Shown: positions 1 to 42,530 of the stretch, in pieces
How the letters are laid out: each line of letters opens with the position of its first letter
Position numbering within the stretch: position 1 is the first letter of the stretch
Source of the DNA: Calonectris borealis
Taxonomy: Eukaryota
DNA: 64,000 bases
NCBI RefSeq assembly: GCF_964195595.1
Contig: NW_027441456.1
Location: forward strand, 808,127 to 872,126
Direction of reading: 5' to 3'
Notes under the pieces: generated by a model
Seen by the model: the letters and a program-made list of their open reading frames with translations, nothing else
Database searches by the model: none
Told to the model about the DNA's origin: nothing
Made by a program: the position numbers and the translations under genes

Positions 1-1496
1 ACCCCCAGACAACATTTCAAGTTGAACCTGGCCACAGATTTTAAAACAACGTAATTCAGGGGTCAAACTGATGCAAGTCTTTTCTTCTTAAAAAATCCAC
101 ACACTGAAAGAAAGACAACACGCACCCTGCTCTGCTACATCAGGTATCACACTCCTTCCGTTCAGCTTCTATTGCATTTCAGAAATAATACAACAAACCC
201 CAACAGAAAAGGTACAACCACAGCATGCTCCCTAAAAACCTAATCTGAACACCTGACTGTCAATTGCGATCAAAGGAAGAGGTGGTGTGACCCTTCCAAC
301 AGTCTGGATGTGCAGGCAGGACCAAACACTGGCTGGGAATCAAGAATACGCACGCTCATCAAGACAGGCTGGTCAACTTTACCACCAAATCTCTACATCA
401 GCATTTGCTAACGCTGTTCAACTTTGGGTATCCAGAGCTGCACCCAGTTAACGTGAAAGCACCTCCTAGGAGCAGCCGGGATTAAGCCAAGAACTATACC
501 TCTCCCACACGCAAATGGAAGAAAACTCAAACTGTGCTCCCTTCTCCCTCTGCTGGCTCAGAGTTTGTGACAGGAATTGGACTCCGCACTTTGGAAAAGC
601 TCCAAGCTCGCAGCCAAAACAAACTGCAGTTCCCTGGGTCTCAGAGTAATTCTAGAGCTACAGTGGTGATACACATCAACTCTAGATCAGATAATACATG
701 CCAGCACTCATCACTGACCCAAGAAGGCAACCTCCTCCTGCCCTACCCAAGGCTTTCAAATGCAACACGCCTTCTTCCTAGAACAGGACCCTACCCTATT
801 GATTTCTAACACCATTAATATATTTCTTCCTCGAGATGGGACTAGAGAGTCACTACGCAAGCAATCAAGCCACCGCTTGGATGCACTGGAGCCTTTGGGG
901 TATTGTTCTTCCCCACGGCTTCCATGACAAGGAAAATGAGAGACAGGATAGATGGGGAGAAGTTTAACTTACAGTGGAGAAAGCTACGGTGAACAAATAA
1001 GATTGAGACTAAGTCCTTTTTCTCAGGGGAAAAGTACACACCCAAGAAATAATTGCTCAACAGACCAGTAGCATTTTCAAGTTACACAGGAACAAAGAAG
1101 ATTTGGCAAACACAACAGAAGAACCAGCTACCACAACACTACTTTTGTATAGGAGTACTAAAGTGTAAACACACGACACAAAAAATGTATCTATTGCATA
1201 TAGAGAGTTTATAGAAATATTTCATCATTATTTAGTTATATACTATAAGAGACAGTCATATATTTCCGTGTCTATAAACACCTATAAAATCCAAACCTTT
1301 ACTCTTCCTTTGGCCATACACATCTTTCACCTCAACGTACACCAAGAAGAATTCGTAAAATCCAAACGTAATTATCTACAAGATTCCAGTAAAACCTGTA
1401 CCTAAGAAACATTTCAGAGACACTGCTACAAATTTCGTGAAGAATGCAGACAAAATCACCAGTAAAGGAACATTAAAAGCACAATGTTCCCACATC

Positions 1497-1516
1497 TGAA
1501 TTTTTTTTTTTTTTTA
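1497..1516. repeat. Poly(T) tract T16-18, present in every unit (also ~7426-7441 and ~13353-13370)
   Basis: Homopolymer visible in the sequence. Confidence 0.9.
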
Positions 1517-3615
1517 GGAGATGGATCCTGAAGTTTTGCACGTTAGATTATTTTTTAATAAGGTTCTGAAATAGTTTTTGCCATTGGTACCCAACAGCAC
1601 CCGCTTCCCAAGTCTGCAATCATCGAGATCGGTAACTGCAAGGGGTTGTTTCTACAGTTACCCATCGCATTTACCTGGATGTGCTGAGGGTCGACACAAG
1701 ACGAGGATCAGGACCCGCGCTGGCACTCACTGCACCACACCTGCGCTGGCACGATCTGACGAGTGCCAGAATTTCATCCGTCTTCATTCGGCGCAGCCGT
1801 CCCACGCCATCCGCTGCTGTCTGCCCCCAGCAAACACTGCTCGTCCTCACACACTCCGGCAGACGGCGCCCCGAAGCAGGGCATTATTTTAGTTCTGAAT
1901 CGGGTAAGCACAGCATCAAAACAGAGCAATGAAAAAGCCTTCGTTAACATTTACAGAGTTGGCAGCGCGTCAAATCTTTTCTATCCCATTAACAACTTGG
2001 GGTGTACTACCCACTCACGCACATTACCTGCATCACGCATGCCTGTACGTACGTATGCATACGTACGGGCACGTGTGCCTGTATACACCTACGCTACTAC
2101 GTTTCCTTCCCCCCGCCTCTATTTTCTGGTCCAGAAGTATCAAGCTCCACATCCAGTGAAACACAGGCGAGTAGTGAGGCACCAATTCACTTCAGGTCAT
2201 CGGCTATCACCTTGGCATCCAAACTAACACTCACATCACCACCCCAACGACTCTCAAAAGTAACAAGACCAACGTTTCATGAAACTCGCTGCCAAGTGCC
2301 AAAGCTGCCACAATCTGAAGGGGCACTACGAAGGGAATTCTCATGAGCATATCTATCTATCTTTCCCATTGTTTACCTACGCCACCCGCAAGCGTTATTT
2401 TCTGATGCAGTACTTAACCTGCATGTTTTCAGCACAGCAACAACAATCATAAGCGATAGTGCCTCCAGTTCTTTTGGGGACACTAAAAAATAACGGAAAT
2501 TTTTTCCCCGCTCCAGACATAACCAGTTCCTGACATTTTCCACCTCCAGGAACTGGAGTCCAGTTGCTGGGGGCTACATCTGCTCACCCACAACTAGAAA
2601 CCCAACGCTGGTTGCAGTGTTTATCAACGCGAGCAAGCGCAGAGCAGTGCTGCGGCCAGACTCAGTATGTCCTCCTCCCAGGGGAGCCTCGTGGAAACAC
2701 AGCGACAGCCTCCTTGCAGGTAAAGGAGCGAGAAGCTCGCTGCCCAGGTCTCAGAGCAATTCGCGAGCTAAACCAACCATCTGCAGATTTAGATCACACA
2801 ACACACGCCAACACCCATCACAGGCCCAGGGGAATTAACACAGCAGCTCCCTCTGTACATCACGGGGCACGGCAGGGCAAGGGAGGAGCAGCTGGGGAGC
2901 ACGCTCCCAACCCCTAACTCTCCACAAGAGAGTGAGGGCTGTTACCCTTACTAAAAGCACAGCTCAAGCCAGTCCATACTCACACAGGCACCTTCCCTCG
3001 GCCCATACAAAGCTCTACAGGCCACGTGCTTCTCCAAAAGCAACGTGCTCCGGCATCAGGTTTTCTCATCGCGTCCTCTCGCGGCGTCACCTTCAAAAAA
3101 CAGCAACAAAACATTAGTGGTGGCGTCAGCTCGGCGGGTTTCCCTGCCCGGGGGCAATTCGGGCAACTCACCGGCGGCAAGTGCCTGTCGGACACAGACC
3201 TTTCTCCGTCCACCCTCACCACGGGCACGTTGCCTGCCTCGCTTCCCGGCCTGGCGAAGCCCTCTCTGGGGAAACCTCCCGACCAGGCTGAGGTCAACCA
3301 CCAGCTCGCCACTGACCGCCCCGACCAGCAGAAGACCCAGACCCCGCTGAGGGGGCCCGACGCAGACCCCGAGGCCTCCCGGGGGCAGGCGGCCACCCAG
3401 GGCCGCTGCAGCAGGGTCCTGCCGGGCGCTGCCTCCTGCCCTGCCCCGCGGCGTGACGCTGCAACGCCTTCATCAAGAACCATCTCCAATTCTCTCAAAA
3501 CCCTTGTGCTATCTGTTCTGACACCGCTACTTGAAGAACCTTCCTACTCTGTTTGCAAGCTGAAACACACTCCTACAAGCTGCTCCCTTCTTCTCATAAC
3601 TGAACAGACTCACAG

Positions 3616-3660
3616 AACCATTTAGGTTGGAAGGGACTTCTGGAGATCATCTAGTCCAAA
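3616..3660 (-). mobile_element. Short CR1 3'-terminal fragment inside each macrosatellite unit (also at ~9541-9585 and ~15471-15515)
   Basis: 'aggttggaagggacttctggagatcatctagtccaaaccc' is the reverse complement of the canonical CR1 3' end (...ggactagatgatctccagaagtcccttccaacct). Confidence 0.6.
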
Positions 3661-5928
3661 CCCAGGGAAGGAGTTCTGCAATATTTTTTTAGTTTTATTT
3701 TAAAAAAGGAGGGGATGTGTAATACATTCAATAATTATTTCATTCTTATTTCATGATCTGAGATCAAATCCATTTTGAAGGATTACATCGCACTACCTAC
3801 ACACAAGGACTCGTGACCTACGACTGCTGTGCTCGGGCACCCTTTTCAGCCAAAAGGGTACACAGGCCGCTGAAGAGTAAAGCCTGTATTTAGACACAAA
3901 TACTGATTTCACACGCAACAGCATCCTCCATCATAAGCAGCCAAAAGACAGCCGTTACAATGAAATAATGTAACTCGCTCATTCATCAATCATAGGAAGA
4001 TACAACAGGAGAATTACATCAACGCCATTTCCAAAACGGTCATTTTAGTCACATCATAGATTTGTAACAGTCCCTTACCTTACTCCATCGCTGATCTACT
4101 ATTGTGTGCTTTTCAACTGACTTGCTAAGGGGAAGACCTTCTTCTGGCAGGAAAATTGGCCATCTCATGGGCTAGGTCATGGCTTTTTAAAAGCAAACAG
4201 AAAAATTCTAGAGATGGGGAAGTGCTTTAAGCCCACCAATGCCTCCTCTTCACCTCTAACACAGAGGTGGTTTGCCAGCTTCCCAAATAGCCGGGACTTT
4301 CCAGACCTTTCTAGGCTGGGAAGAAGGAAGGCTGCCTAACTTCCATTACTTAATACCTGTTGGGGTTGATTTTGGTTTTCTTCTTCCCTCCCCAAATTAT
4401 AACCTCCCGAGTCTCTACCCGGCTGCTCAGATCTGTCGACCTCTTTGCTCATTTACTGCAACTAAGGGGCAGGCACTGGGCAAACAAGGAAGGTACATCA
4501 ACGGGCATCACCGATGGATCTGTGACCAGCACACCCCGCTGCGATACAGGGGACACCTGCACCACGTCGGGGCGGGAAGGGGGAACACCCTCACCGTCAG
4601 CTAAAGCACTGTGACACCACCGCCGCTCTTCCTCCTCCGCCGAGCACTGAGCCAGGGACCCGGGGACCTTTTCAAGTCAGTCTACATTCTGATTCTTGTA
4701 CCGTGCACTAATTATGAAGCATTTGACCACATCTGCAGAGGGTCCAGGTGACTGAAAACTCTAAGGCACTGAAAACTCAGGTAATGGGAAAGCTACGCTC
4801 AGTGCTAGAAAATGCCGGGTGGCAATACGCTACGCTGATTGCTAAAGTCTTTCTAGAATAATAAAGCTCTAAGTGTAACTGCAACCCTCTGGCCAGTTCT
4901 CAGTCTACCGAGGAGCCTTAACATCAAAAGCCTGGCTGCCCCCATGGCATCAGGCAGTGTCGCGCAATACAGATTCGGAAAGGAACTTTTATAGGCAGGA
5001 TGTGATGCTGCCCAATTTAAAACATCTCCATACAAACAAAACCTCACCCGTCCTGCACAAGCTTCAGAACCAAATCCTCCATACGGGAAAAAAACAAATC
5101 CTGCCGCTTTCCCCACATCAAGAGTACCCAGTTTGCCCTGCAAGGCACAACAGCAACTAATGCACCCTATATCCTAACCAAGCTCAGTCCTGCAGAAGCT
5201 TCAGCAGTGCTAACGAGAAGACACTGTACTTGTGCAAGTGATGATATAGGTCTTACCAGAAGAGCCGGGATTGCTGCAGCACAGAGGGAGAACCTCACAG
5301 CTATTTCTCCTAGAATGTAGGGGGGTAGGGAAGGAAATAACTTGTGGTTTTTTTAACAACAAGAAAAACACGTTCAAATCACCATTGAAAATACGGAACA
5401 AAATGCTGAAAGCCCAGGTTTTATATTGAACAAAAAAACCCCTAACTACAAAGAGCCCCTCTACTGTTTCCTCTTCCACCCCACGAGTAATTTCCTCAAC
5501 AGTCAGCAAGTGCACATCACAACTCCAGTGATCGGCGTGCTAACTGCGCATAAGAGAAAACAAATTCTTTTCCGCTGGTGGATATCTCCAGGTATATATC
5601 CAAATAAACTCCAATAGTGTCACTGGCACAGAGCTATGTGACCTTTAACTTTACCTGTAGTGCCCTACTGGGCGGCTGCAGAGCTGTGGACTCAGAAATA
5701 CCGGGGCACAACTCTTGGCCCACCTGAAACGTTCCCGGCTCTCTCGGCTATCTGGGCAGAAGGAGAAACTATGCCGGGTTTTAGAGCAAGACTGCCTAGC
5801 GCTGCAAATTTTCTTTTGCACACTCGCACCCGGAAGCTAAGCCAGAAGCAGCCACACCTGCAGATGAGGGACTGCTGAGCATGTCCACACCAACAGACCT
5901 CTCCTAACACACACTTCCAGCAATTAAC

Positions 5929-8900
5929 ACCCCCAGACAACATTTCAAGTTGAACCTGGCCACAGATTTTAAAACAATGTAATTCGGGGGTCAAACTGAT
6001 GCAAGTCTTTTCTTCTTAAAAAATCCACACACTGAAAGAAAGACAACACGCACCCTGCTCTGCTACATCAGGTATCACACTCCTTCCATTCAGCTTCTAT
6101 TGCATTTCAGAAATAATACAACAAACCCCAACAGAAAAGGTACAACCACAGCATGCTCCCTAAAAACCTAATCTGAACACCTGACTGTCAATTGCGATCA
6201 AAGGAAGAGGTGGTGTGACCCTTCCAACAGTCTGGATGTGCAGGCAGGACCAAACACTGGCTGGGAATCAAGAATACGCACGCTCATCAAGACAGGCTGG
6301 TGAACTTTACCACCAAATCTCTACATCAGCATTCGCTAACGCTGTTCAACTTTGGGTATCCAGAGCTGCACCCAGTTAACGTGAAAGCATCTCCTAGGAG
6401 CAGCCGGGATTAAGCCAAGAACTATACCTCTCCCACACGCAAATGGAAGAAAACTCAAACTGTGCTCCCTTCTCCCTGTGCTGGCTTAGCGTTTGTGACA
6501 GGAATTGGACTCCACACTTTGGAAAAGCTCCAAGCTCGCAGCCAAAACAAACTGCAGTTCCCTGGGTCTCAGAGTAATTCTAGAGCCACAGTGGTGATAC
6601 ACATCAACTCTAGATCAGATAATACATGCCAGCACTCATCACTGACCCAAGAAGGCAACCTCCTCCTGCCCTACCCAAGGCTTTCAAATGCAACACGCCT
6701 TCTTCCTAGAACAGGACCCTACCCTATTGATTTCTAACACCATTAATATATTTCTTCCTCGAGATGGGACTAGAGAGTCACTACGCAAGCAATCAAGCCA
6801 CCGCTTGGATGCACTGGAGCCTTTGGGGTATTGTTCTTCCCCACGGCTTCCATGACAAGGAAAATGAGAGACAGGATAGATGGGGAGAAGTTTAACTTGC
6901 AGTGGAGAAAGCTACGGTGAACAAATAAGATTGAGACTAAGTCCTTTTTCTCAGGGGAAAAGTACACACCCAATAAATAATTGCTCAACAGACCAGTAGC
7001 ATTTTCAAGTTACACAGGAACAAAGAAGATTTGACAAACACAACAGAAGAACCAGCTACCACAACACTACTTTTGTATAGGAGTACTAAAGTGTAAACAC
7101 ACAACAAAAAATGTATCTATTGCATATAGAGAGTTTATAGAAATATTTCATCATTATTTAGTTATATACTATAAGAGACAGTCATATATTTCCGTGTCTA
7201 TAAACACCTATAAAATCCAAACCTTTACTCTTCCTTTGGCCATACACATCTTTCACCTCAACGTACACCAAGAAGAATTCGTTAAACCCAAACGTAATTA
7301 TCTACAAGATTCCAGTAAAACCTGTACCTAAGAAAGACTTCAGAGACACTGCTACAAATTTCGTGAAGAATGCAGACAAAATCACCAGTAAAGGAACATT
7401 AAAAGCACAATGTTCCCACATCTGAATTTTTTTTTTTTTAGGAGATGGATCCTGGAGTTTTGCACGTTAGATTATTTTTTAATAAGGTTCTGAAATAGTT
7501 TTTGCCATTGGTATCCAACAGCGCCCGCTTCCCAAGTCTGCAATCATCGAGATCGGTAACTGCAAGGGGTTGTTTCTACAGTTACCCATCGCATTTACCT
7601 GGATGTGCTGAGGGTCAACACAAGACGAGGATCAGGACCCGCGCTGGCACTCACTGCACCACACCTGCGCTGGCACGATCTGACGAGTGCCAGGATTTCA
7701 TCTGTCTTCATTCGGCGCAGCCGTCCCACGCCATCCGCTGCTGTCTGCCCCCAGCAAACACTGCTCGTCCTCACACACTCCGGCAGACTGCGCCCCGAAG
7801 CAGGGCATTATTTTAGTTCTGAATCGGGTAAGCACAGCATCAAAACAGAGCAATGAAAAAGCCTTCGTTAACATTTACAGAGTTGGCAGCGCGTCAAATC
7901 TTTTCTATCCCATTAACAACTTGGGGTGTACTACCCACTCACGCACATTACCTGCATCACGCATGCCTGTACGTACGTATGCATACGTACGGGCACGTGT
8001 GCCTGTATACACCTACGCTACTACGTTTCCTTCCCCCCGCCTCTATTTTCTGGTCCAGAAGTATCAAGCTCCACGTCCAGTGAAACACGGGCGAGTAGTG
8101 AGGCACCAATTCACTTCAGGTCATCGGCTATCACCTTGGCATCCAAACTAACACTCACATCACCACCCCAACGACTCTCAAAAGTAACAAGACCAACGTT
8201 TCATGAAACTCGCTGCCAAGTGCCAAAGCTGCCACAATCTGAAGGGGCACTACGAAGGGAATTCTCATGAGCATATCTATCTATCTTTCCCATTGTTTAC
8301 CTACGCCACCCGCAAGCGTTATTTTCTGATGCAGTACTTAACCTGCATGTTTTCAGCACAGCAACAACAATCATAAGCGATAGTGCCTCCAGTTCTTTTG
8401 GGGACACTAAAAAATAACTGCAACTTTTTTCCCCGCTCCAGACATAACCAGTTCCTGACATTTTCCACCTCCAGGAACTGGAGTCCAGTTGCTGGGGGCT
8501 ACATCTGCTCACCCACAACTAGAAACCCAACGCTGGTTGCAGTGTTTATCAACGCGAGCAAGCGCAGAGCAGTGCTGCGGCCAGACTCAGTATGTCCTCC
8601 TCCCAGGGGAGCCTCGTGGAAACACAGCGACAGCCTCCTTGCAGGTAAAGGAGCGAGAAGCTCGCTGCCCAGGTCTCAGAGCAATTCGAGAGCTAAACCA
8701 ACCATCTGCAGATTTAGATCACACAACACACGCCAACACCCATCACAGGCCCAGGGGAATTAACACAGCAGCTCCCTCTGTACATCACGGGGCACGGCAG
8801 GGCAAGGGAGGAGCAGCTGGGGAGCACGCTCCCAACCCCTAACTCTCCACAAGAGAGTGAGGGCTGTTACCCTTACTAAAAGCACAGCTCAAGCCAGTCC

Positions 8901-11855
8901 ATACTCACACAGGCACCTTCCCTCGGCCCATACAAAGCTCTACAGGCCACGTGCTTCTCCAAAAGCAACGTGCTCCGGCATCAGGTTTTCTCATCGCGTC
9001 CTCTCGCGGCGTCACCTTCAAAAAACAGCAACAAAACATTAGTGGTGGCGTCAGCTCGGCGGGTTTCCCTGCCCGGGGGCAATTCGGGCAACTCACCGGC
9101 GGCAAGTGCCTGTCGGACACAGACCTTTCTCCGTCCACCCTCACCACGGGCACGTTGCCTGCCTCGCTTCCCGGCCTGGCGAAGCCCTCTCTGGGGAAAC
9201 CTCCCGACCAGGCTGAGGTCAACCACCAGCTCGCCACTGACCGCCCCGACCAGCAGAAGACCCAGACCCCGCTGAGGGGGCCCGACGCAGACCCCGAGGC
9301 CTCCCGGGGGCAGGCGGCCACCCAGGGCCGCTGCAGCAGGGTCCTGCCGGGCGCTGCCTCCTGCCCTGCCCCGCGGCGTGACGCTGCAACGCCTTCATCA
9401 AGAACCATCTCCAATTCTCTCAAAACCCTTGTGCTATCTGTTCTGACACCGCTACTTGAAGAACCTTCCTACTCTGTTTGCAAGCTGAAACACACTCCTA
9501 CAAGCTGCTCCCTTCTTCTCATAACTGAACAGACTCACAGAACCATTTAGGTTGGAAGGGACTTCTGGAGATCATCTAGTCCAAACCCAGGGAAGGAGTT
9601 CTGCAATATTTTTTTAGTTTTATTTTAAAAAAGGAGGGGATGTGTAATACATTCAATAATTATTTCATTCTTATTTCATGATCTGAGATCAAATCCATTT
9701 TGAAGGATTACATCGCACTACCTACACACAAGGACTCGTGACCTACGACTGCTGTGCTCGGGCACCCTTTTCAGCCAAAAGGGTACACAGGCCGCTGAAG
9801 AGTAAAGCCTGTATTTAGACACAAATACTGATTTCACACGCAACAGCATCCTCCATCATAAGCAGCCAAAAGACAGCCGTTACAATGAAATAATGTAACT
9901 CGCTCATTCATCAATCATAGGAAGATACAACAGGAGAATTACATCAACGCCATTTCCAAAACGGTCATTTTAGTCACATCATAGATTTGTAACAGTCCCT
10001 TACCTTACTCCATCGCTGATCTACTATTGTGTGCTTTTCAACTGACTTGCTAAGGGGAAGACCTTCTTCTGGCAGGAAAATTGGCCATCTCATGGGCTAG
10101 GTCATGGCTTTTTAAAAGCAAACAGAAAAATTCTAGAGATGGGGAAGTGCTTTAAGCCCACCAATGCCTCCTCTTCACCTCTAACAGAGAGGTGGTTTGC
10201 CAGCTTCCCAAATAGCCGGGACTTTCCAGACCTTTCTAGGCTGGGAAGAAGGAAGGCTGCCTAACTTCCATTACTTAATACCTGTTGGGGTTGATTTTGG
10301 TTTTCTTCTTCCCTCCCCAAATTATAACCTCCCGAGTCTCTACCCGGCTGCTCAGATCTGTCGACCTCTTTGCTCATTTACTGCAACTAAGGGGCAGGCA
10401 CTGGGCAAACAAGGAAGGTACATCAACGGGCATCACCGATGGATCTGTGACCAGCACACCCCGCTGCGATACAGGGGACACCTGCACCACGTCGGGGCGG
10501 GAAGGGGGAACACCCTCACCGTCAGCTAAAGCACTGTGACACCAACGCTGCTCTTCCTCCTCCGCCGAGCACTGAGCCAGGGACCCGGGGACCTTTTCAA
10601 GTCAGAGTCTACATTCTGATTCTTGTACCGTGCACTAATTATGAAGCATTTGACCACATCTGCAGAGGGTCCAGGTGACTGAAAACTCTAAGGCACTGAA
10701 AACTCAGGTAATGGGAAAGCTACGCTCAGTGCTAGAAAAGGCCGGGTGGCAATACGCTACGCTGATTGCTAAAGTCTTTCTAGAATAATAAAGCTCTAAG
10801 TGTAACTGCAACCCTCTGGCCAGTTCTCAGTCTACCGAGGAGCCTTAACATCAAAAGCCTGGCTGCCCCCATGGCATCAGGCAGTGTCGCGCAATACAGA
10901 TTCGGAAAGGAACTTTTATAGGCAGGATGTGATGCTGCCCAATTTAAAACATCTCCATACAAACAAAACCTCACCCGTCCTGCACAAGCTTCAGAACCAA
11001 ATCCTCCATACGGGAAAAAAACAAATCCTGCCGCTTTCCCCACATCAAGAGCACCCAGTTTGCCCTGCAAGGCACAACAGCAACTAATGCACCCTATATC
11101 CTAACCAAGCTCAGTCCTGCAGAAGCTTCAGCAGTGCTAACGAGAAGACACTGTACTTGTGCAAGTGATGATATAGGTCTTACCAGAAGAGCCGGGATTG
11201 CTGCAGCACAGAGGGAGAACCTCACAGCTATTTCTCCTAGAATGTAGGGGGGTAGGGAAGGAAATAACTTGTGGTTTTTTTAACAACAAGAAAAACACGT
11301 TCAAATCACCATTGAAAATACGGAACAAAATGCTGAAAGCCCAGGTTTTATATTGAACAAAAAAACCCCTAACTACAAAGCGCCCCTATGCTGTTTCCTC
11401 TTCCACCCCACGGGTAATTTCCTCAACAGTCAACAAGTGCACATCACAACTCCAGTGATCGGCGTGCTAACTGCGCATAAGAGAAAACAAATTCTTTTCC
11501 GCTGGTGGATATCTCCAGGTATATATCCAAATAAACTCCAATAGTGTCACTGGCACAGAGCTATGTGACCTTTAACTTTACCTGTAGTGCCCTACTGGGC
11601 GGCTGCAGAGCTGTGGACTCAGAAATACCGGGGCACAACTCTTGGCCCACCTGAAACGTTCCCGGCTCTCTCGGCTATCTGGGCAGAAGGAGAAACTATG
11701 CCGGGTTTTAGAGCAAGACTGCCTAGCGCTGCAAAGTTTCTTTTGCACACTCGCACCCGGAAGCTAAGCCAGAAGCAGCCACACCTGCAGATGAGGGACT
11801 GCTGGGCATGTCCACACCAACAGACCTCTCCTAACACACACTTCCAGCAATTAAC
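5929..11855. repeat. Macrosatellite unit copy 2 (full length)
   Basis: Colinear with copy 1 over the full 5.93 kb, with near-identical ORF translations. Confidence 0.95.
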
Positions 11856-14800
11856 ACCCCCAGACAACATTTCAAGTTGAACCTGGCCACAGATTTTAAA
11901 ACAATGTAATTCGGGGGTCAAACTGATGCAAGTCTTTTCTTCTTAAAAAATCCACACACTGAAAGAAAGACAACACGCACCCTGCTCTGCTACATCAGGT
12001 ATCACACTCCTTCCGTTCAGCTTCTATTGCATTTCAGAAATAATACAACAAACCCCAACAGAAAAGGTACAACCACAGCATGCTCCCTAAAAACCTAATC
12101 TGAACACCTGACTGTCAATTGCGATCAAAGGAAGAGGTGGTGTGACCCTTCCAACAGTCTGGATGTGCAGGCAGGACCAAACACTGGCTGGGAATCAAGA
12201 ATACGCACGCTCATCAAGACAGGCTGGTGAACTTTACCACCAAATCTCTACATCAGCATTTGCTAACGCTGTTCAACTTTGGGTATCCAGAGCTGCACCC
12301 AGTTAACGTGAAAGCATCTCCTAGGAGCCGCCGGGATTAAGCCAAGAACTATACCTCTCCCACACGCAAATGGAAGAAAACTCAAACTGTGCTCCCTTCT
12401 CCCTCTGCTGGCTTAGCGTTTGTGACAGGAATTGGACTCCACACTTTGGAAAAGCTCCAAGCTCGCAGCCAAAACAAACTGCAGTTCCCTGGGTCTCAGA
12501 GTAATTCTAGAGCCACAGTGGTGATACACATCAACTCTAGATCAGATAATACATGCCAGCACTCATCACTGACCCAAGAAGGCAACCTCCTCCTGCCCTA
12601 CCCAAGGCTTTCAAATGCAACACGCCTTCTTCCTAGAACAGGACCCTACCCTATTGATTTCTAACACCATTAATATATTTCTTCCTCGAGATGGGACTAG
12701 AGAGTCACTACGCAAGCAATCAAGCCACCGCTTGGATGCACTGGAGCCTTTGGGGTATTGTTCTTCCCCACGGCTTCCATGACAAGGAAAATGAGAGACA
12801 GGATAGATGGGGAGAAGTTTAACTTGCAGTGGAGAAAGCTACGGTGAACAAATAAGATTGAGACTAAGTCCTTTTTCTCAGGGGAAAAGTACACACCAAA
12901 TAAATAATTGCTCAACAGACCAGTAGCATTTTCAAGTTACACAGGAACAAAGAAGATTTGACAAACACAACAGAAGAACCAGCTACCACAACACTACTTT
13001 TGTATAGGAGTACTAAAGTGTAAACACACAACAAAAAATGTATCTATTGCATATAGAGAGTTTATAGAAATATTTCATCATTATTTAGTTATATACTATA
13101 AGAGACAGTCATATATTTCCGTGTCTATAAACACCTATAAAATCCAAACCTTTACTCTTCCTTTGGCCATACACATCTTTCACCTCAACGTACACCAAGA
13201 AGAATTCGTAAAACCCAAACGTAATTATCTACAAGATTCCAGTAAAACCTGTACCTAAGAAAGACTTCAGAGACACTGCTACAAATTTCGTGAAGAATGC
13301 AGACAAAATCACCAGTAAAGGAACATTAAAAGCACAATGTTCCCACATCTGAATTTTTTTTTTTTTAGGAGATGGATCCTGGAGTTTTGCACGTTAGATT
13401 ATTTTTTAATAAGGTTCTGAAATAGTTTTTGCCATTGGTATCCAACAGCGCCCGCTTCCCAAGTCTGCAATCATCGAGATCGGTAACTGCAAGGGGTTGT
13501 TTCTACAGTTACCCATCGCATTTACCTGGATGTGCTGAGGGTCGACACAAGACGAGGATCAGGACCCGCGCTGGCACTCACTGCACCACACCTGCGCTGG
13601 CACGATCTGACGAGTGCCAGGATTTCATCCGTCTTCATTCGGCGCAGCCGTCCCACGCCATCCGCTGCTGTCTGCCCCCAGCAAACACTGCTCGTCCTCA
13701 CACACTCCGGCAGACGGCGCCCCGAAGCAGGGCATTATTTTAGTTCTGAATCGGGTAAGCACAGCATCAAAACAGAGCAATGAAAAAGCCTTAGTTAACA
13801 TTTACAGAGTTGGCAGCGCGTCAAATCTTTTCTATCCCATTAACAACTTGGGGTGTACTACCCACTCACGCACATTACCTGCATCATGCATGCCTGTACG
13901 TACGTATGCATACGTACGGGCACGTGTGCCTGTATACACCTACGCTACTACGTTTCCTTCCCCACCGCCGCTATTTTCTGGTCCAGAAGTATCAAGCTCC
14001 ACGTCCAGTGAAACACAGGCGAGTAGTGAGGCACCAATTCACTTCAGGTCATCGGCTATCACCTTGGCATCCAAACTAACACTCACATCACCACCCCAAC
14101 GACTCTCAAAAGTAACAAGACCAACGTTTCATGAAACTCGCTGCCAAGTGCCAAAGCTGCCACAATCTGAAGGGGCACTACGAAGGGAATTCTCATGAGC
14201 ATATCTATCTATCTTTCCCATTGTTTACCTACGCCACCCGCAAGCGTTATTTTCTGATGCAGTACTTAACCTGCATGTTTTCAGCACAGCAACAACAATC
14301 ATAAGCGATAGTGCCTCCAGTTCTTTTGGGGACACTAAAAAATAACTGCAACTTTTTTCCCCGCTCCAGACATAACCAGTTCCTGACATTTTCCACCTCC
14401 AGGAACTGGAGTCCAGTTGCTGGGGGCTACATCTGCTCACCCACAACTAGAAACCCAACGCTGGTTGCAGTGTTTATCAACGCGAGCAAGCGCAGAGCAG
14501 TGCTGCGGCCAGACTCAGTATGTCCTCCTCCCAGGGGAGCCTCGTGGAAACACAGCGACAGCCTCCTTGCAGGTAAAGGAGCGAGAAGCTCGCTGCCCAG
14601 GTCTCAGAGCAATTCGAGAGCTAAACCAACCATCTGCAGATTTAGATCACACAACACACGCCAACACCCATCACAGGCCCAGGGGAATTAACACAGCAGC
14701 TCCCTCTGTACATCACGGGGCACGGCAGGGCAAGGGAGGAGCAGCTGGGGAGCACGCTCCCAACCCCTAACTCTCCACAAGAGAGTGAGGGCTGTTACCC

Positions 14801-15800
14801 TTACTAAAAGCACAGCTCAAGCCAGTCCATACTCACACAGGCACCTTCCCTCGGCCCATACAAAGCTCTACAGGCCACGTGCTTCTCCAAAAGCAACGTG
14901 CTCCGGCATCAGGTTTTCTCATCGCGTCCTCTCGCGGCGTCACCTTCAAAAAACAGCAACAAAACATTAGTGGTGGCGTCAGCTCGGCGGGTTTCCCTGC
15001 CCGGGGGCAATTCGGGCAACTCACCGGCGGCAAGTGCCTGTCGGACACAGACCTTTCTCCGTCCACCCTCACCACGGGCACGTTGCCTGCCTCGCTTCCC
15101 GGCCTGGCGAAGCCCTCTCTGGGGAAACCTCCCGACCAGGCTGAGGTCAACCACCACCTCGCCACTGACCGCCCCAACCAGCAGAAGACCCAGACCCCGC
15201 TGAGGGGGCCCGACGCAGACCCCGAAGCCTCCCGGGGGCAGGCGGCCACCCAGGGCCGCTGCAGCAGGGTCCTGCCGGGCGCTGCCTCCTGCCCTGCCCC
15301 GCGGCGTGACGCTGCAACGCCTTCATCAAGAACCATCTCCAATTCTCTCAAAACCCTTGTGCTATCTCTTCTGACACCGCTACTTGAAGAACCTTCCTAC
15401 TCTGTTTGCAAGGCTGAAACACACTCCTACAAGCTGCTCCCTTCTTCTCATAACTGAACAGACTCACAGAACCATTTAGGTTGGAAGGGACTTCTTGAGA
15501 TCATCTAGTCCAAACCCAGGGAAGGAATTCTGCAACATTTTTTTAGTTTTATTTTAAAAAATGAGGGGATGTGTAATACATTCAATAATTATTTCATTCT
15601 TATTTCATGATCTGAGATCAAATCCATTTTGAAGGATTACATCGCACTACCTACACACAATGACGCGTGACCTACGACTGCTGTGCTTAGGCACCCTTTT
15701 CAGCCAAAAGGGTACAAAGGCCGCTAAAGAGTAAAGCCTGTAATTAGACACAAATACTGATTGCACACGCAACAGCATCCTCCATCATAAGCAGCCAAAA
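11856..15800. repeat. Macrosatellite unit copy 3 (truncated at unit position ~3947)
   Basis: Colinear with unit positions 1-3947. At 15800/15801 the sequence jumps from '...gcagccaaaag' (unit ~3947) to 'ctgcacccagttaacgtgaaag' (unit ~437). Confidence 0.9.
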
Positions 15801-16427
15801 GCTGCACCCAGTTAACGTGAAAGCATCTCCTAGGAGCAGCCGGGATTAAGCCAAGAACTATACCTCTCCCACACGCAAATGGAAGAAAACTCAAACTGTG
15901 CTCCCTTCTCCCTCTGCTGGCTCAGAGTTTGTGACAGGAATTGGACTCCACACTTTGGAAAAGCTCCAAGCTCGCGGCCAAAACAAACTGCAGTTCCCTG
16001 GGTCTCAGAGTAATTCTAGAGCTACAGTGGTGATACACATCAGCCCTAGATCAGATAATACATGCCAGCACTCATCACTGACCCAAGAGGGCAACCTCCT
16101 CCTGCCCTACCCAAGGCTTTCAAATGCAACACGCCTTCTTCCTAGAACAGGACCCTACCCTATTGATTTCTAACACCATTAATATATTTCTTCCTCGAGA
16201 TGGGACTAGAGAGTCACTACGCAAGCAATCAAGCCACCGCTTGGATGCACTGGAGCCTTTGGGGTATTGTTCTTCCCCACGGCTTCCATGACAAGGAAAA
16301 TGAGAGACAGGATAGATGGGGAGAAGTTTAACTTACAGTGGAGAAAGCTACGGTGAACAAATAAGATTGAGACTAAGTCCTTTTTCTCAGGGGAAAAGTA
16401 CACACCCAATAAATAATTGCTCAACAG
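15801..16427. repeat. Partial unit copy 4 (unit positions ~437-1063)
   Basis: ORFs 15898..16173 and 16206..16454 match 534..809 and 842..1060. Homology ends after 'aattgctcaacaga' at ~16427. Confidence 0.9.
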
Positions 16428-16454
16428 ATCGGCATAATTCTCAGAAAACACCAA

Positions 16455-16640
16455 CCCCTAACTCTCCACAAGAGAGTGAGGGCTGTTACCCTTACTAAAA
16501 GCACAGCTCAAGCCAGTCCATACTCACACAGTCACCTTCCCTCAGCCCATACAAAGCTCTACAGGCCACGTGCTTCTCCAAAAGCAACGTGCTCCGGCAT
16601 CAGGTTTTCTCATCGCGTCCTGTCGCCGTATCACCTTCAA
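16455..16640. repeat. Unit-homologous segment (unit ~2905-3090) leading into the edge CpG island
   Basis: 'cccctaactctccacaagagagtgagggctgttaccc...' matches unit 2905 onward. ORF 16476.. matches ORFs 2932/8857/14785 (MRAVTLTKSTAQASPYSH...). Confidence 0.85.
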
Positions 16641-17420
16641 AAAGCACCAACAACACGTCAGCGGTTGCGTCAGCTCGGCGCGTTTCTGTGTCCGGGGGTC
16701 ATTCGGGCAACTCGGCAGCGGCGAGCGCCTGCTCGGACAGAGACCGTTCTCCGTCCCCCCTGACCGCGGGCACATTTCCTGCCTCGCTTCCCGGCCTGGC
16801 CGAACCCTCCGGACGAGGCTGAGGCCAACCACCGGCTCACGGCTGAGCGCCCCGACCAGTGGGAGGCCGAGACCCCGCCAAGGGCTTTGGGCCCCCGCCG
16901 CCAGGCCCGGTCCGGGCGGGCTCTGCCGCAACTGCCGGCCCCCACCACGCCGCTGGAAGGTGCTACCGCGGCCGGAGCCCCCGCGCGCCCCACAGTGCGG
17001 CGGCCGCGGCCCCGGGCCAGGCCTCGGCCCCACCACGCGGCAGCAGCACCCACCTTTACCGCCGCCCGCGCCGGAAAGAGCGTCAGGGCGCGGGGCGGGG
17101 CAAGAAGTAGGTCCCGGAAGGACCCCGCTATAGGTGCCCCTGCCGTTCGCCTGACTCGCGCGGGCGGACTGAGGTGGCGGGACCTGGCGGTCAGGCGGAC
17201 GCCCCGCGGCAGGGAAGGACCCCTCCCGGAAGCGGGGTCTCCGCAGGGAGCGCCGCGGCGCTGTGGAGAAGCCGGTCCTAGTGCCCAGCCCCGGAGCGGG
17301 TGAGGGCAGCGGCGCTTCCCTCCAGGAAGAAACCCCTTTCCTTCCCAATTAAAACTGGTTGGTCTGTTAATTACCGACGTTGGGCTCTGGTAGACGTGAT
17401 CCGTGCCGGGGGGGAACACC
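16640..17420. promoter_or_regulatory. CpG island at the array edge. It is the diverged, CpG-retaining homolog of unit region ~3090-3480. GC-rich sequence continues to ~17980.
   Basis: Extreme GC and CpG density (cggcggccgcggccccgggcc...). ORF 16570 (MLLQKQRAPASGFLIASCRR...) is a diverged version of unit ORF 3026 (MLLQKQRAPASGFLIASSRG...). Confidence 0.7.
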
Positions 17421-17647
17421 ATTTTGAGACCATAAATGAAAAAAGACGTATAATGCTGCTGGCGTAGAGCAATGGAAACTAGGCTCTCTGTTTTGGGTTT
17501 GTGGGTATTTGGGGGGTCTCGGGGGGGGGTCTGAGGGTTACGGGTTGGTCCTTTTGAGGGGTTTCGATGGGGGCGTTGGGTGTGTTTTTAAAAACGGCAG
17601 AGCCTTGTCCAGCGTGGGAGGGGGTTGACCTTCCCGCCGGTGAACAA

Positions 17648-17693
17648 GATGGCGGCTGGCAGCCGTGAAGCAGTGCCCGCCTCAGCGCAGCCC
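17648..17693 (+). other. Speculative first coding exon (ATG in Kozak context 'aacaagATGG', 15 codons MAAGSREAVPASAQP, then donor GTGAGC)
   Basis: Sequence 'gaacaagatggcggctggcagccgtgaagcagtgcccgcctcagcgcagcccg|gtgagcg' lies inside a CpG island. No downstream exons were identified. Confidence 0.12.
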
Positions 17694-24346: not shown

Positions 24347-25246
24347 CTGAAAAGGGAAGTTTACAGAGGTGCAACTAAATTGGATTCTTCCAAGGTACAA
24401 CACATTTTCATTCTTTAGTTTACTCAAAGCATAAATGAAAGCTTCCCCCCACCCCTCCAAACACTTCAGTTTTACCTAAAAAACACCATATACACAACAA
24501 ATACTAGTTTTGCATTTACAGACCAGCACGCCCTTAATTTGTCAAAGCTGGGCAGTTTACTTTCTCCATATGTGAAATTAATTCTGTAGCTGTAATCACT
24601 CATTTGTCCTTTTCTAGTTCAATTACATCCTTTGAGATGAGAGAGGAAAAAGTAAAGAACCTAAAATGCAGGCAGAAGTAAAATACAGCTGTACTACAAA
24701 CAAACAATGAAATAAATGAGATTTTCAAGTTTTCTAATTCCGTTCCTAATGTTCAATGTGCATTTTTGCCTGCTACTAAAAATAGTACTTTCTTTGTTTT
24801 CTTTTTTTTTCTCCCCTCCCCCCCAAAAGAGAACTAGCAGCAGTGTCTCCGAGGCCTATTCCTTGAGCAGGAGTAGCTAAAATTAAAGCACACCATGTGT
24901 TTAAGGTTAAAGTTGTCCACCTTGCTTCTTACACTTTCAAGGCTTACTACTTCACATTAATTGGCACTTATCAATTAAATGGTTCTCAAAGATTCTTTTG
25001 CAGCTGGGCAAAGCCATCTTATTTTAGACCATTCAGAAAAATTTCTTATCTGAATTTATAACATTATAATTATTAAGTATGTCTTATGAATAGTTTCTGC
25101 ATGCTGTGAAAAAGAGAAGAGTACATGAGTACATGAAAATGTTCAGTTGCTTAACAGTCTCTTTTCTTTAATGGCAATTTGTTACATTATTGGTTTAGAA
25201 GTGAATAATAATTCCTGGCTTGTCAAATAAGAGATACACTGTTCAC

Positions 25247-25355
25247 CTTTCTTCCAATTTGGATTCCAGGGCTATTTGCTTCTACAATGAATCCAGTAAA
25301 GGCTTTGCTTGCAGGAGCTTTTGGATCTGGATTAGTACGAGCTAGCAAAAAATAC
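25247..25355 (-). CDS. ACADM: ACADM exon 8: (W)[36 protein letters not shown]
   Basis: Acceptor 'cactag', donor 'gtgaac'. Human: [36 protein letters not shown]. Confidence 0.92.
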
Positions 25356-26570
25356 CTAGTGTAAAACAAAGAAGAGGGGAGTCAGTTTATCCTCACAATT
25401 AACAATCAGATACTTTTTTAGCTAACATGTTAAATGTTTTTGTGTGTGTTTGTACCATATAATAAATCTATCAAAAAGTTAACAACCCTTTTTCCTTGTC
25501 CCTTCCAAAAAAATGAGCGGGAGTGAGGGAGAGGAAGCATCAGCGCATCTCTTACTGCGAAAGTCAAGATTTAATAAAACTACTTCAGATCAACATGCAA
25601 AGGTTCTCCACCTTTTCCATGTATTTTAAGTCTTAATATTACAATCAGCTTCACAAATAGTACAAAAGAAACCTATTCACAGCACATACATAAAAATTAT
25701 TGCTGAGGAAATACAGTATTGCATGCAAAATGTTATGTTATCCTCTTCATTTCAAATATCTTAATTTTATTCTTCTAAGTATAAGTTGTAAATAAGTTTT
25801 TTTCTGCTAGAAATGAAACAGTTGTAAATCACATTTGTGGTGTTCAGTAACCTCAAAAGGTAGCTGGTAGATTCTCTTTGACGGTTCTGCCTTGAACAGG
25901 GAAATAAATAACAAGAAAATTCAACTTTGTACATAAATGTATAAAGTTTTTCCTCTTGAATTAAAAAGAATTTATGTGTTGGGGATGAGCATGATCTTAA
26001 GTGAGACATGATGAAAGAGGTCTATATTGTAAAGCACATTCCTGGACACCGCAGCAAAATCTGGATTCTTTGACACTGGGAAAATGTCTTCTCTTAAGAA
26101 AATAAAATGTAACACCACGATCCCAGAATTTTTCTATCTTCACTAAAAGTGAGAGATGTTTCCAGTAGAATCAGAAGCAACTGGTCTCCATCACCACACC
26201 CAAAATGCAAGGTCGCTTGTAACATGAGCCTCCTGAGTACTTTGCAAGTTAACTCTTACTGTTGCTGCCCTTCCCTGAAGAGAAAGTGGAATTGATTTTG
26301 TTAGATAGCAGCAAAATTTGAGAGGCATTCTTGAATGGAGTTGTCATGTCATCCCTCAGTTTCCTTTTTAGCCCCTGCACAGCACCGAGACTGCTTTCTT
26401 ATACCTTGTCCTGATAAACTGGTCACCGATTAAAGTGCAGTGTGGCAAAACGTAATGAATATTCAGATTTATAACATCTTTAAAGAAACACTAGTGTATA
26501 ACTTGGGGCGGGGACACACACACGCGCGCATCAGTTTAGAATAGAGTAACAGAAAATGTAACATGAGTCA

Positions 26571-28570: not shown

Positions 28571-29940
28571 AGAATCATAGAATCATTAAGGTTGGAAAAG
28601 ACCTCTAAGATCATCGAGTCCAACCATCAACCCAACACCACCATGCCCACTACACCATGTCCCTAAGCGCCTCATCTACACGTCTTTTAAATACCTCCAG
28701 GGATGGTGACTCCACCACTTCCCTGGGCAGCCTGTTCCAAGGCCTGACCACTCTTTTAGTAAAGAAATTTCTCCTAATATCGAATCTAAACCTCCCTTGG
28801 CGCAACTTGAGGCCATTTCCTCTCGTCCTATCGCTAGTTACTTGGGAGAAGAGACCAACACCCACCTCGCTACAACCTCCTTCCAGGTAGTTGTAGAGCG
28901 CGATGAGGTCTCCCCTCAGCCTCCTCTTCTCCAGGCTAAACAACCCCAGTTCCCTCAGCCGCTCCTCATAAGACTTGTGCTCCAGGCCCTTCACCAGCTT
29001 CGTTGCCCTCCTCTGGACACGCTCCAGCACCTCCTTGTCCTTCTTGTAGTGAGGGGCCCAAAACTGAACACAGGATTCGAGGTGCGGCCTCACCAGTGCC
29101 CAGTACAGGGGCACGATCACCTCCCTGCTCCTGCTGGCCACACTATTTCTGATACAGGCCAGGATGCCGTTGGCCGCCTTGGCCACCTGGGCACACTGCT
29201 GGCTCATGTTCAGCTGTCGACCAGCACCCCCAGGTCCTTTTCCTCCGGGCAGCTGTCCAGCCACTCTTCCCCAAGCCTGTAGAGTTGCCTGGGGTTGTTG
29301 TGGCCGAAGTGCAGGACCCGGCACTTGGCCTTGTTGAACCTCATACAGTTGGCCTCAGCCCATCGATCCAGCCTGTCCAGGTCCCTCTGCAGAGCCTTCC
29401 TACCCTCGAGCAGATCAACACTCCCGCCCAGCTTGGTGTCATCTGCAAACTTACTGAGGGAGCACTCGATCCCCTCGTCCAGATCGTTGATAAAGATATT
29501 GAACGGGACCGGCCCCAGCACTGAGCCCTGGGGAACACCGCTCGTGACCGGCCGCCAACTGGATTTAACTCCGTTGACCACAACTCTCTGGGCTCGGCCG
29601 TCCAGCCAGTTTTTTACCCAGCGAAGAGTGCACCTGTCTAGGCCGTGAGCCGCCAGCTTCTCTAGGAGAACGCTGTGGGAGACAGTGTCAAAGGCCTTAC
29701 TGAAGTCCAGGTAGACCACATCTACAGCCTTTCCCTCATCCACTAGGCGGGTAATTGGTCATAGAAGGAGATCAGATTGGTCAAGCAGGACCTGCCTTCC
29801 ATGAACCCGTGCTGGCTGGGCCTGATCCCCTGGTTGTCCCGCACATGGCTTGTGAGTGCCCGCAAGACGAACCACTCCATGATCTTCCCCAGCACCGAGG
29901 TCAGGCTGACAGAAGCTGTTCTGTATCTTTTACCATCTTT
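28571..29940 (-). mobile_element. CR1 LINE (3' ~1.4 kb: ORF2 reverse-transcriptase C-terminal half plus 3' end with (ATTCTATG)n) inside ACADM intron 4
   Basis: Minus-strand ORFs 29210..29743 ([13 protein letters not shown]...FADDTKL... RT motifs) and 28650..29324 (...[47 protein letters not shown]). The 3' end is 'agaatcatagaatcattaaggttggaaaagacc'. Confidence 0.9.
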
Positions 29941-41572: not shown

Positions 41573-42300
41573 ATCATAGAATCACAGAATATCAGGTTGG
41601 AAAGGACCTCAAAGATCATCTGGTCCAACCTTTCTTGGCAAAAGCATGGTCTAGACAAGATGGCCCAGCACCTTGTCCAGCTGAATCTTAAAAGTGTCCA
41701 ATGTTGGGGAATCCACCACCTCCCTGGGGAGATTATTCCAATGGCTGATTGTTCTCATTGTGAAAAATTTTCCTCTTGTGTCCAATCGGAATCTCCCCAG
41801 GAGTAACTTGTACCCATTATCCCTCCTCTTTTCCATATGACTCCTTGTATAAAAGGAGTCTCCATCTTTTTTGTAGCCACCCTTTAAATACTGGAACTCG
41901 GTGATAAGGTCTCCCCTAAGCCTTCTTTTCTCAGGACTGAACAAACCCAGCTCTCAGCCTTTCCTCATATGGCAGGCTTCCCAGTCCTTTGATCATCTTT
42001 GTGGCTCTCCAGCCTGTTCACATCTTTTTTGCGTAGCAGGGACCGAAACTGAACACACTATTCTAGGTGTGGCCTGACAAGTACGAGCAGAGTGGGATAA
42101 TGACTTCTTTATCTCCGCTGGTGATGCCCTTGTTGATGCAACCCAGCATCCTGTTGGCTTTCTTTGCCACAGCAGCACAACTGTTCACTCATATTGAGCT
42201 TGTTGTCCACCAGGACCCCCAGGTCCCTTTCCACAGAGCTGCTCCCCAGCCGGGTAGATCCCAGCCTGTGCTGCACTCCACCCCACAAGGTACACCTGGA
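41573..42300 (-). mobile_element. CR1 fragment (3' ~0.7 kb)
   Basis: Minus-strand ORF 41651..41944 '...RFRLDTRGKFFTMRTISHWNNLPREVVDSPTLDTFKIQLDKVLGHLV'. 3' end 'atcatagaatcacagaatatcaggttggaaaggacc'. Confidence 0.85.
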
Positions 42301-42530
42301 AGCCACCCCAAGGGTGTAGGACCCAGGGCTGGGGAAAGAGGTGCCTGGAGGGGCACCCCTTTCACAAACTCCTCTTGCTCCCTGGGATGAGCAGGGACCC
42401 AGCGCTGCAGGCTCATCTTGATGGCAGCCTCTCCCCATCCCTGCAGGCAGCAGCTGCCCAGCCCCAGCCCCATTGCACGCTGGCGGTGGGGCAACCACGG
42501 AAATGCCCTGAGGAGCTCCGGGTCCCTCAC

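Follow-up and report, generated by a model that had tools for sequence, protein, structure and literature searches.

Introduction

SNORD45A, SNORD45B and SNORD45C, three small nucleolar RNAs (snoRNAs) of the box C/D type, lie in introns of RABGGTB in human. The GAS5 and UHG/SNHG1 genes and the SNORD116/SNORD115 arrays are non-coding snoRNA hosts or tandem snoRNA clusters, and silenced duplicates and pseudogenes show decay of CpG islands by methylation-dependent loss of CpG to TpG. The present work concerns a locus of the shearwater Calonectris borealis in which SNORD45 genes are embedded in a tandemly repeated, degenerate copy of RABGGTB. It lies at the start of a stretch of 64,000 nucleotides (contig NW_027441456.1, positions 808,127 to 872,126), referred to as the window. 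Positions 1 to ∼17160 of the window (minus strand) are a degenerate paralogue of the 5′ half of RABGGTB, situated just downstream of an intact ACADM gene, and the 5.93-kb repeat unit within it is a non-coding RABGGTB remnant that covers intron 1 through exon 6 but lacks exon 4.

GC content is raised where paralogues have undergone conversion (PMC2720389), and non-allelic gene conversion is GC-biased (bioRxiv 10.1101/135152). In birds, GC-biased conversion has been described for recombination hotspots at CpG islands and start sites (bioRxiv 10.1101/023101); for duplicated genes, it was described in histones (Galtier 2003, as cited in PMC2720389). A search of the literature on SNORD45 together with RABGGTB brought up only studies of expression and methylation in human, none of which concerned birds or duplications.

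Compared with the SNORD45 genes of RABGGTB (RF00279), those of the shearwater locus belong to the same snoRNA family, occupy introns of the same host gene and possess the boxes, guides and terminal stem; however, the host is a degenerate, tandemly amplified, non-coding paralogue, and only one of the two snoRNA positions per unit is still intact. With GAS5, SNHG1 and the SNORD116/SNORD115 arrays, the locus shares poorly conserved exons, retained splice sites, a conserved intronic snoRNA and head-to-tail units downstream of a single CpG-island promoter. It differs in its small copy number (at least 3.7 SNORD45 genes in the window), in the traceable origin from the 5′ half of a coding gene and in that transcription through it is a prediction. 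The mosaic of converted and divergent tracts with sharp bounds, the raised GC content of converted DNA and the excess of fixed AT-to-GC substitutions are those of concerted evolution with GC-biased conversion (PMC2720389; bioRxiv 10.1101/135152), but here they concern non-coding pseudogene and intron DNA of a bird, the bias is very strong (7.4:1), CpG-rich blocks were created de novo and a snoRNA paralogue was destroyed. As in CpG-island decay, a duplicated piece of a promoter island is less CpG-dense than the copy that kept the promoter, and the king penguin fits that pattern well; in contrast, the internal lineage of the shearwater lacks an excess of CpG-to-TpG/CpA changes, and its ratio of observed to expected CpG (O/E) stays at 0.7 instead of approaching that of bulk sequence. 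The difference between the array copies and the copy at the edge of the array is probably, in the main, old divergence together with GC-biased change and not CpG decay driven by methylation. A SNORD45 host array of this kind has probably not been described so far.

Results

Array units, edge copy and the intron-1 block

Tandem Repeats Finder, run with a period limit of 500, was silent on the 5.9-kb array; a direct-repeat search and self-BLAST were used instead. A direct repeat of 5.93 kb fills positions 1–15801 with at least 2.66 units at a spacing of 5925–5929 nt, and the array extends past the window start. Identity between unit copies is 98.9–99.3% (98–100% for the direct-repeat matches). 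Copy 3 meets the edge copy at 15800/15801 with a microhomology of 2 nt. The elements on which the comparison of array and edge depends are as follows:

1..5928, minus strand: array unit copy 1, from direct repeats; may be cut by the window start
5929..11855, minus strand: array unit copy 2, complete, from direct repeats
11856..15801, minus strand: array unit copy 3, corresponding to unit positions 1–3947, from self-BLAST and copy comparison
2984..3090, minus strand: pseudo-exon 2, ∼55% amino-acid identity, with a frameshift
3090..3480, also 9015–9405 and 14943–15333, minus strand: CpG-rich remnant of intron 1 (3′ part), immediately 5′ of pseudo-exon 2, from alignment
15800..16428, minus strand: SNORD45-bearing intron segment of the edge copy, 98.4–98.9% identical to unit positions 436–1064
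16528..16634, minus strand: pseudo-exon 2 of the edge copy, from alignment; a recent conversion tract ends at ∼16622 inside it
16635..17053, minus strand: intron 1 of the edge copy (419 nt), the body of the CpG island and the sole stretch comparable with 3090–3480, from alignment
17054..17160, minus strand: exon 1 remnant and core promoter from RABGGTB, from alignment to the intact golden-eagle gene

Alignment to the eagle gene shows that the CpG island at the edge consists of promoter, exon 1 and the 419-nt intron 1, whereas the block at 3090–3480 corresponds to intron 1 alone. Array copies begin inside intron 1 and have never had the promoter. Two other assignments were considered and rejected. 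That 2984–3090 is exon 1, with 3090–3480 as its promoter, is ruled out by the N-termini of bird proteins (LQ|GTPQKD, read through the acceptor ctgcag) and by the eagle alignment, both of which make these segments exon 2 and intron 1. That the edge copy is a unit with two deletions is ruled out by the penguin and falcon loci, which show that pseudo-exon 2 was joined to the SNORD45 intron long ago; the one deletion peculiar to the shearwater is the 2.4-kb loss at 15800.

A sequence-only reading of this DNA had suggested that the terminal copy is possibly an active promoter, and the promoter is indeed there: 17054–17160 aligns with the eagle core promoter and exon 1, and the GC box GCCCCGCCCCGC (17090–17101), the CTTCCGG motifs (17069–17078 and 17114–17121) and the donor G|GTGGGT are conserved with eagle. 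CpG O/E of the promoter/exon-1 region is 0.9–1.0, and the ATG of exon 1 is lost, being AAG in the shearwater and GAG in the penguin. The terminal copy sits on a genuine promoter, which is probably active. About 0.5 kb from this minus-strand promoter, the plus strand has an ATG with a favorable context (gaacaagATGGCGGCTGGC...) at 17640–17690, and GTGAGC appears 15 codons later; this may represent the initial exon of a transcript that leaves a bidirectional CpG island in the opposite direction.

Array and edge probably differ by old divergence upstream of a conversion boundary

The three array blocks are in register; no difference separates copies 1 and 2 over the block, and copy 3 has three substitutions, one of them a CpG-to-CpA transition. 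Aligned to the edge copy with MAFFT, the array falls into three zones. Positions 2912–3077 are 98.8% identical to 16456–16621; from 3078/16622 on, identity falls abruptly to ∼81–82%, with 80–89% per 40-column block up to 3353/16884; and past 3353/16884 it is 33–56%. Homology of 3090–3353 to 16634–16884 is clear (local score 147, compared with 11 ± 1.5 for shuffled sequence; 0 of 200 shuffles reach it). No significant similarity was found between 3354–3480 and 16885–17100, where the score of 16 is reached by 142 of 500 shuffles (14.4 ± 2.5). The alignment of the array segments with the edge island, as originally proposed, thus stands for the proximal part of the block (3090–3353) and fails for the distal part. 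Because the distal stretch scores no better than shuffled sequence, the further homologous GC-rich expansion ascribed to the edge copy cannot be shown.

The abrupt step in identity at 3078/16622 marks the end of the most recent conversion tract in the shearwater. The block at 3090–3480 lies upstream of this boundary and therefore carries old, independently accumulated divergence. Comparison with the two copies of the king penguin leads to the same picture: from pseudo-exon 2 onward, informative sites favor 30:0 the grouping within species (both shearwater copies together, both penguin copies together), and in columns 190–300 of the alignment with outgroups (A3) they favor 7:2 the orthology grouping, in which copies at the same position are alike. 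Paralogues are closer to each other than orthologues within sharply bounded tracts, so that concerted evolution has operated in both the shearwater and the penguin lineages.

CpG density is indeed lower in the array than at the edge (O/E 0.72 versus 0.94), as the sequence-only reading had stated. For 3090–3480 and its two copies it is 0.71–0.72 (32 CpG in 391 nt, GC 68%), and for 16640–17100 it is 0.94 (60 CpG in 461 nt, GC 74.8%); over the truly homologous stretch, the values are 0.70–0.73 and 0.97–0.99, respectively. Bulk sequence of the locus has O/E 0.2–0.3. When the thresholds of Gardiner-Garden and Frommer are applied (at least 200 bp, GC at least 50%, O/E at least 0.6), the edge copy qualifies as a CpG island, and so do all three array blocks. 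The edge copy thus does keep island-level CpG, but since the array blocks pass the same thresholds, to say that it alone does so is overstated. The 500-bp length rule of Takai and Jones is stricter, and the array blocks would fail it.

The nature of the differences does not point to deamination either. Among 254 aligned sites, 49 differ; 8 of these are edge CpGs that read TpG or CpA in the array by transition, 4 are the reverse (binomial p=0.39), and the remaining 37 comprise 16 transitions outside CpG and 21 transversions. Enrichment of differences at edge-CpG positions is modest (odds ratio 1.8, Fisher p=0.12). The earlier statement that the copies differ preferentially at CpG sites turned to TpG or CpA is not borne out by either statistic. 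All four motif pairs that had been quoted for it are present in the alignment, but they are selected examples, and one of them (accgttc/acctttc) is a G/T transversion, which is no product of deamination.

Polarization with outgroups places most of the polarizable changes on the edge lineage

The alignment for polarization contained the edge and array copies of the shearwater and the edge and second copies of the penguin, with the falcon added. By the penguin copies and the falcon, 25 of the 49 differences are edge-derived, 12 are array-derived and 12 are ambiguous (p=0.047). The array lineage has one unambiguous CpG-to-TpG loss; three further CpG transition sites are ambiguous, and up to four more array losses would be added if what is inferred as gain at the edge was in fact loss in parallel. 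On the edge lineage, 11 AT-to-GC changes contrast with 6 GC-to-AT changes, which is not significant alone. A tally per CpG gives 13 CpGs common to both copies, 15 found only at the edge and 5 only in the array. Six of the 15 edge-only CpGs are supported as ancestral, and their losses in the array are due to transition (3), transversion (2) and an indel (1); the other nine have no counterpart in any other sequence compared. Plain parsimony with the two penguin copies had suggested many CpG gains at the edge, a result that was not kept as such: the falcon shows two of them to be retained ancestral CpGs, and column 302 is an alignment artefact.

In the king penguin (locus L006, 29330–29940 versus 24780–25400), the situation is different. 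There, seven edge CpGs correspond to TpG or CpA in the internal copy and none shows the reverse (p=0.016), differences are enriched at edge CpGs (odds ratio 4.2, p=0.0035), and O/E is 0.76 at the edge and 0.30 in the internal copy. The footprint of methylation proposed for the shearwater is thus clear in the internal copy of another species. Of the CpGs lost from the internal copy of the penguin, 12 are still present in the shearwater array, versus 2 in the reverse direction (p=0.013). No significant excess of CpG-to-TpG/CpA changes was found on the shearwater array lineage, and its O/E of 0.70–0.72 is near neither bulk sequence (0.2–0.3) nor the penguin internal copy (0.30).

The array gains GC and CpG while its CpGs mutate rapidly

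Outside the block at 3090–3480, the shearwater unit was compared with its penguin orthologue over 3460 sites, with the eagle as outgroup. The shearwater branch has 304 fixed changes, 228 of which are AT-to-GC and 31 GC-to-AT (p=3e-38), and the array has gained 63 CpGs since the split from the penguin; among the few CpGs common to penguin and eagle in these sites, no CpG-to-TpG loss was found. GC content of the unit rises from 35% (eagle) through 41% (penguin) to 47% (shearwater), and O/E around pseudo-exon 3 from 0.22 through 0.39 to 0.74. The adjacent ACADM region with its introns, used as control for the same branch, has 83 changes in 3407 sites, with 49 AT-to-GC and 22 GC-to-AT; relative to this, the bias in the array is 3.3-fold stronger (Fisher p=0.0004) and the rate 3.6-fold higher.

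The young variants that are specific to single array copies are directed the other way, with 28 GC-to-AT versus 16 AT-to-GC. Transitions among them affect 10 of 272 CpG positions, compared with 19 of 3675 other positions. This ∼7-fold hypermutability is what ordinary germline methylation of vertebrates would give. The array is a net gainer of CpG although its CpGs mutate faster than other sites. Mutation toward AT combined with fixation toward GC is the signature of GC-biased gene conversion, and the AT-to-GC:GC-to-AT ratios of fixed (228:31) and young (16:28) array changes, set beside those of ACADM (49:22), conform to it.

A second CpG-rich block is present in each unit at 1500–2250, around pseudo-exon 3, with O/E 0.74–1.06. 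As the homologous eagle and penguin sequences are AT-rich, its CpG-island-like sequence arose de novo.

The unit is a dead RABGGTB remnant that retains splice sites

Exon remnants were placed by tblastn with RABGGTB and by blastn against the eagle and parrot genes. Every unit contains degenerate RABGGTB exon remnants on the minus strand (tblastn) and is collinear with the eagle gene over ∼10.3–16.5 kb, starting in the 3′ part of intron 1 and ending shortly after exon 6. The eagle stretch 13471–15230, which contains exon 4, is missing from the unit, and a search of the array unit with eagle exon 4 found no homologue. Read in gene sense (minus strand), the unit consists of the intron-1 remnant, pseudo-exon 2, a dead SNORD45, pseudo-exon 3, an intact SNORD45, pseudo-exons 5 and 6 and a spacer with a CR1-like fragment. 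This short fragment (ggttggaagggac..., at 3604–3663) is found in every unit, in the unit-end spacer near the duplication junction. Besides pseudo-exon 2, the exon remnants are:

1683..1862, minus strand: pseudo-exon 3, amino acids 42–101, 52% identical to the parrot RABGGTB protein
5036..5316, minus strand: pseudo-exons 5 and 6, with internal deletions and retained splice sites

Splice sites are intact in seven of the eight cases examined. Pseudo-exon 2 keeps its AG acceptor (..ttttttgaag|G at 3091/3090) and a GTGAGT donor; pseudo-exon 3, which is 50% identical to human RABGGTB, is strongly shifted from AT to GC, and its acceptor AG is now CG. A functional RABGGTB (Prenyltrans, PF00432) has an intact open reading frame and conserved exons, and bird orthologues are ∼90% identical to the human protein. 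The remnants of the array are 43–57% identical; exon 2 carries the frameshift, the ATG has become AAG, there is no exon 4, and the gene breaks off after exon 6, which itself carries deletions. The protein-coding exons of the array locus are thus dead, and it is no functional RABGGTB gene.

One SNORD45 per unit is conserved, the other was lost

SNORD45 genes in the locus are the following:

635..719, minus strand: intact SNORD45 box C/D snoRNA, Rfam RF00279
6563–6647 and 12490–12574 (array), 15999–16083 (edge copy), minus strand: further intact SNORD45, Rfam RF00279
2743..2844, also ∼8668–8769 and ∼14596–14697, minus strand: dead second SNORD45, the intron-2 paralogue, from Rfam and alignment

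There is one intact SNORD45 per unit and one in the edge copy. All four match the model over positions 1–72 of 72, with 58.5–62.4 bits (gathering threshold, 42), and possess the C (UGAUGA), D′ (CUGA), C′ and D (CUGA) boxes, both guides and the terminal stem. Between shearwater, penguin and falcon, boxes and guides (UGGCAUGUAUUA and GCUCUAGAAUUAC) are invariant; the genes differ at 3–5 of 85 nt, and their flanks are ∼75–85% identical. Some variants are specific to copies, such as ...CUAGGGCUGAUG... in the edge copy and GUGGCUC in copies 2 and 3. In the dead paralogue, the C box reads UGAUGG and D′ GUGA, and both guides are altered, mostly from A/T to G/C; its penguin counterpart still scores 56 bits. 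Here, GC-biased fixation appears to have eliminated an RNA gene that was functional.

Intact bird RABGGTB genes carry SNORD45 in intron 2, to which the guan adds one in intron 3. Intron 2 of the intact guan gene (L002) contains two SNORD45 (10256–10338 and 11646–11728) 1390 nt apart. Intron segments with SNORD45 have thus been duplicated locally more than once in birds.

The locus is an old paralogue next to an intact ACADM

Intact ACADM lies upstream on the minus strand, with its last exon at 20172–20098 and exon 1 near 34300; the spliced protein from the window is an exact match to XP_074994770.1 (ACADM isoform X1, Calonectris). A CpG island at 33600–34600 represents the ACADM promoter and exon 1, encoding MSAFGASR followed by GTGAGC.

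The order ACADM, intact RABGGTB, MSH4 is the canonical one and is found in parrot (L001), guan (L002) and golden eagle (L007). At the falcon locus (L003) and the ‘ACADM-like’ locus of the king penguin (L006), degenerate RABGGTB and SNORD45 lie downstream of intact ACADM, and no intact RABGGTB exons were found downstream of ACADM at these two loci. Over 3395 shared columns of ACADM, the distance from falcon to shearwater or penguin is 0.155–0.159 and that from falcon to the eagle/parrot side is 0.24–0.28; eagle and parrot are 0.148 apart, and the four-point sums (0.307 vs 0.44) separate falcon, shearwater and penguin from eagle and parrot. The species tree does not hold such a group, and this contradiction indicates an old paralogous locus. 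Penguin, stork and manakin counterparts are labeled ‘ACADM-like’ by NCBI. In the falcon, a satellite-like tandem repeat with a period of ∼68–70 nt occupies 28830–29202, ∼9.6 kb downstream of ACADM and past the RABGGTB remnant.

The king penguin locus has the same edge structure, a second copy with exon 3 and the same spacer-to-intron-1 (S|R) junction as the shearwater. Because this junction is shared, the tandem duplication predates the split between penguin and shearwater.

Other features of the window

An innate-immunity gene of the NLR type occupies 42100–59930 (minus strand); its 582-residue exon (58178–59926) contains FISNA, NACHT, NOD2_WH and NLRC4_HD2, and many similar exons with a single LRR each, at ∼42.5–55 kb, look internally duplicated. 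Fragments of CR1-type retrotransposons lie at 28571–29912 (with a reverse-transcriptase domain at 29210–29743), 60823–61312 and 62609–63282. A CpG island at 61300–62500 is extremely GC-rich, contains short tandem repeats with periods of 6–26 and matched no gene that was identified.

Discussion

The locus is an ordinary combination of known processes, namely concerted evolution with GC-biased conversion. The following history would account for it. A tandem duplication took place before penguin and shearwater separated; gene conversion then homogenized the copies within each species from pseudo-exon 2 onward, and the intron-1 block beyond the end of the tract has kept its old divergence, which is mostly non-CpG and mostly on the edge lineage. 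That lineage shows more AT-to-GC than GC-to-AT changes and several inferred new CpGs, as expected beside a promoter CpG island in a bird. The array is under strong GC-biased fixation, with exchange between copies as the presumed source of the bias. Transcription from the edge promoter through the array would yield a non-coding host transcript whose introns release SNORD45, and each duplication of the unit would raise SNORD45 gene dosage.

The sequence-only reading had offered another cause: internal copies were methylated in the germline and lost CpGs by deamination, and the terminal copy was protected as an unmethylated, active promoter island. The lower O/E of the array over the homologous stretch, the 8:4 ratio of transition sites, the 3:1 ratio of outgroup-supported CpG-to-TpG losses (array to edge), the hypermutability of CpG in young array variants and the conserved promoter at the edge would all agree with it; the king penguin internal copy fits it exactly. 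For the shearwater, it nevertheless appears unlikely. Neither the enrichment nor the asymmetry is significant, 37 of 49 differences are not CpG transitions, and the polarizable changes fall mostly on the edge (25 versus 12), including CpG gains placed there by parsimony. At 0.72, the array stays far above bulk sequence and has kept the CpGs that the penguin internal copy lost (12 versus 2), and the array as a whole has gained 63 CpGs under a bias from AT to GC; with a single unambiguous loss on its lineage, decay is unlikely to account for the difference. Moreover, the abrupt step in identity is that of a recombination boundary and not that of a decay gradient. If, conversely, the block were an unmethylated, functional internal island, serving as alternative start or regulatory element for each SNORD45 unit with its CpGs kept by hypomethylation or selection, its passing of the classical thresholds, the 12:2 retention relative to the penguin, the identity of copies 1 and 2 and its position directly upstream of a pseudo-exon with intact splice sites would be explained. 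Yet the core promoter, exon 1, the GC box and the CTTCCGG motifs are present only at 17054–17160 and not in the block, one of the three changes in copy 3 is a CpG-to-CpA transition, and CpG gain also occurred around pseudo-exon 3 (O/E ∼0.9–1.06). That the gain is not limited to 3090–3480 points to a regional bias of fixation, and an internal island of this kind is improbable. Finally, copies that are 98.9–99.3% alike, on a scaffold of 1.57 Mb that is not of chromosome scale, might raise the suspicion of an assembly artefact (a false haplotype duplication or an expanded repeat), which would make any comparison of copies meaningless. The copies, however, differ by ∼1% plus indels, with copy-specific variants spread over the unit; the edge copy has a unique structure and old divergence; and the independent assembly of the king penguin, which belongs to another order, has the edge copy and at least one unit with the same junctions. 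There is thus hardly any reason to believe in an artefact.

Old divergence combined with GC-biased change remains the probable cause of the difference between array and edge, and several points weigh against it. The direction of the asymmetry (8:4 in the pairwise comparison, 3:1 for CpG-transition losses in the per-CpG tally) is the one predicted from methylation, and in so small a sample a modest effect of methylation may be hidden. At A3 columns 243 and 382, the edge CpG is also found in the falcon, so that the array and both penguin copies lost CpG in parallel there; as CpG-to-TpG loss recurs, parsimony may understate losses in the array, which possibly amount to between 1 and 8 of the 49 differences. 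The penguin internal copy may have overwritten part of the penguin edge copy, whose value as an outgroup is then lower. GC-biased conversion is deduced from substitution patterns, transcription, start site and snoRNA output are predicted from the DNA, and the full array and the intact RABGGTB of the shearwater lie outside the window.

For claims about methylation, the lesson is that a gap in CpG density between repeat copies, together with selected CpG/TpG pairs, is no evidence of differential methylation; the limits of the alignment, the sites in the reverse direction, polarization with outgroups and checks for GC-biased conversion are needed beforehand. The locus requires no new mechanism and opens no long-standing question. 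It joins three known processes, an old segmental paralogue, concerted evolution with a boundary that can be mapped and GC-biased fixation. A wider proposal, put forward tentatively and with less than even confidence, is that a partial paralogue of RABGGTB became a dedicated, amplified host of SNORD45, which shearwaters, penguins and falcons have retained solely because of the snoRNA, and that intense GC-biased conversion between the units generates CpG-island-like sequence de novo and at the same time wears down the exons and one snoRNA paralogue. If that were true, the locus would be a natural example of the origin of tandem snoRNA clusters and of ‘orphan’ CpG islands. It suggests how the duplicate of a coding gene can survive purely as a snoRNA host.

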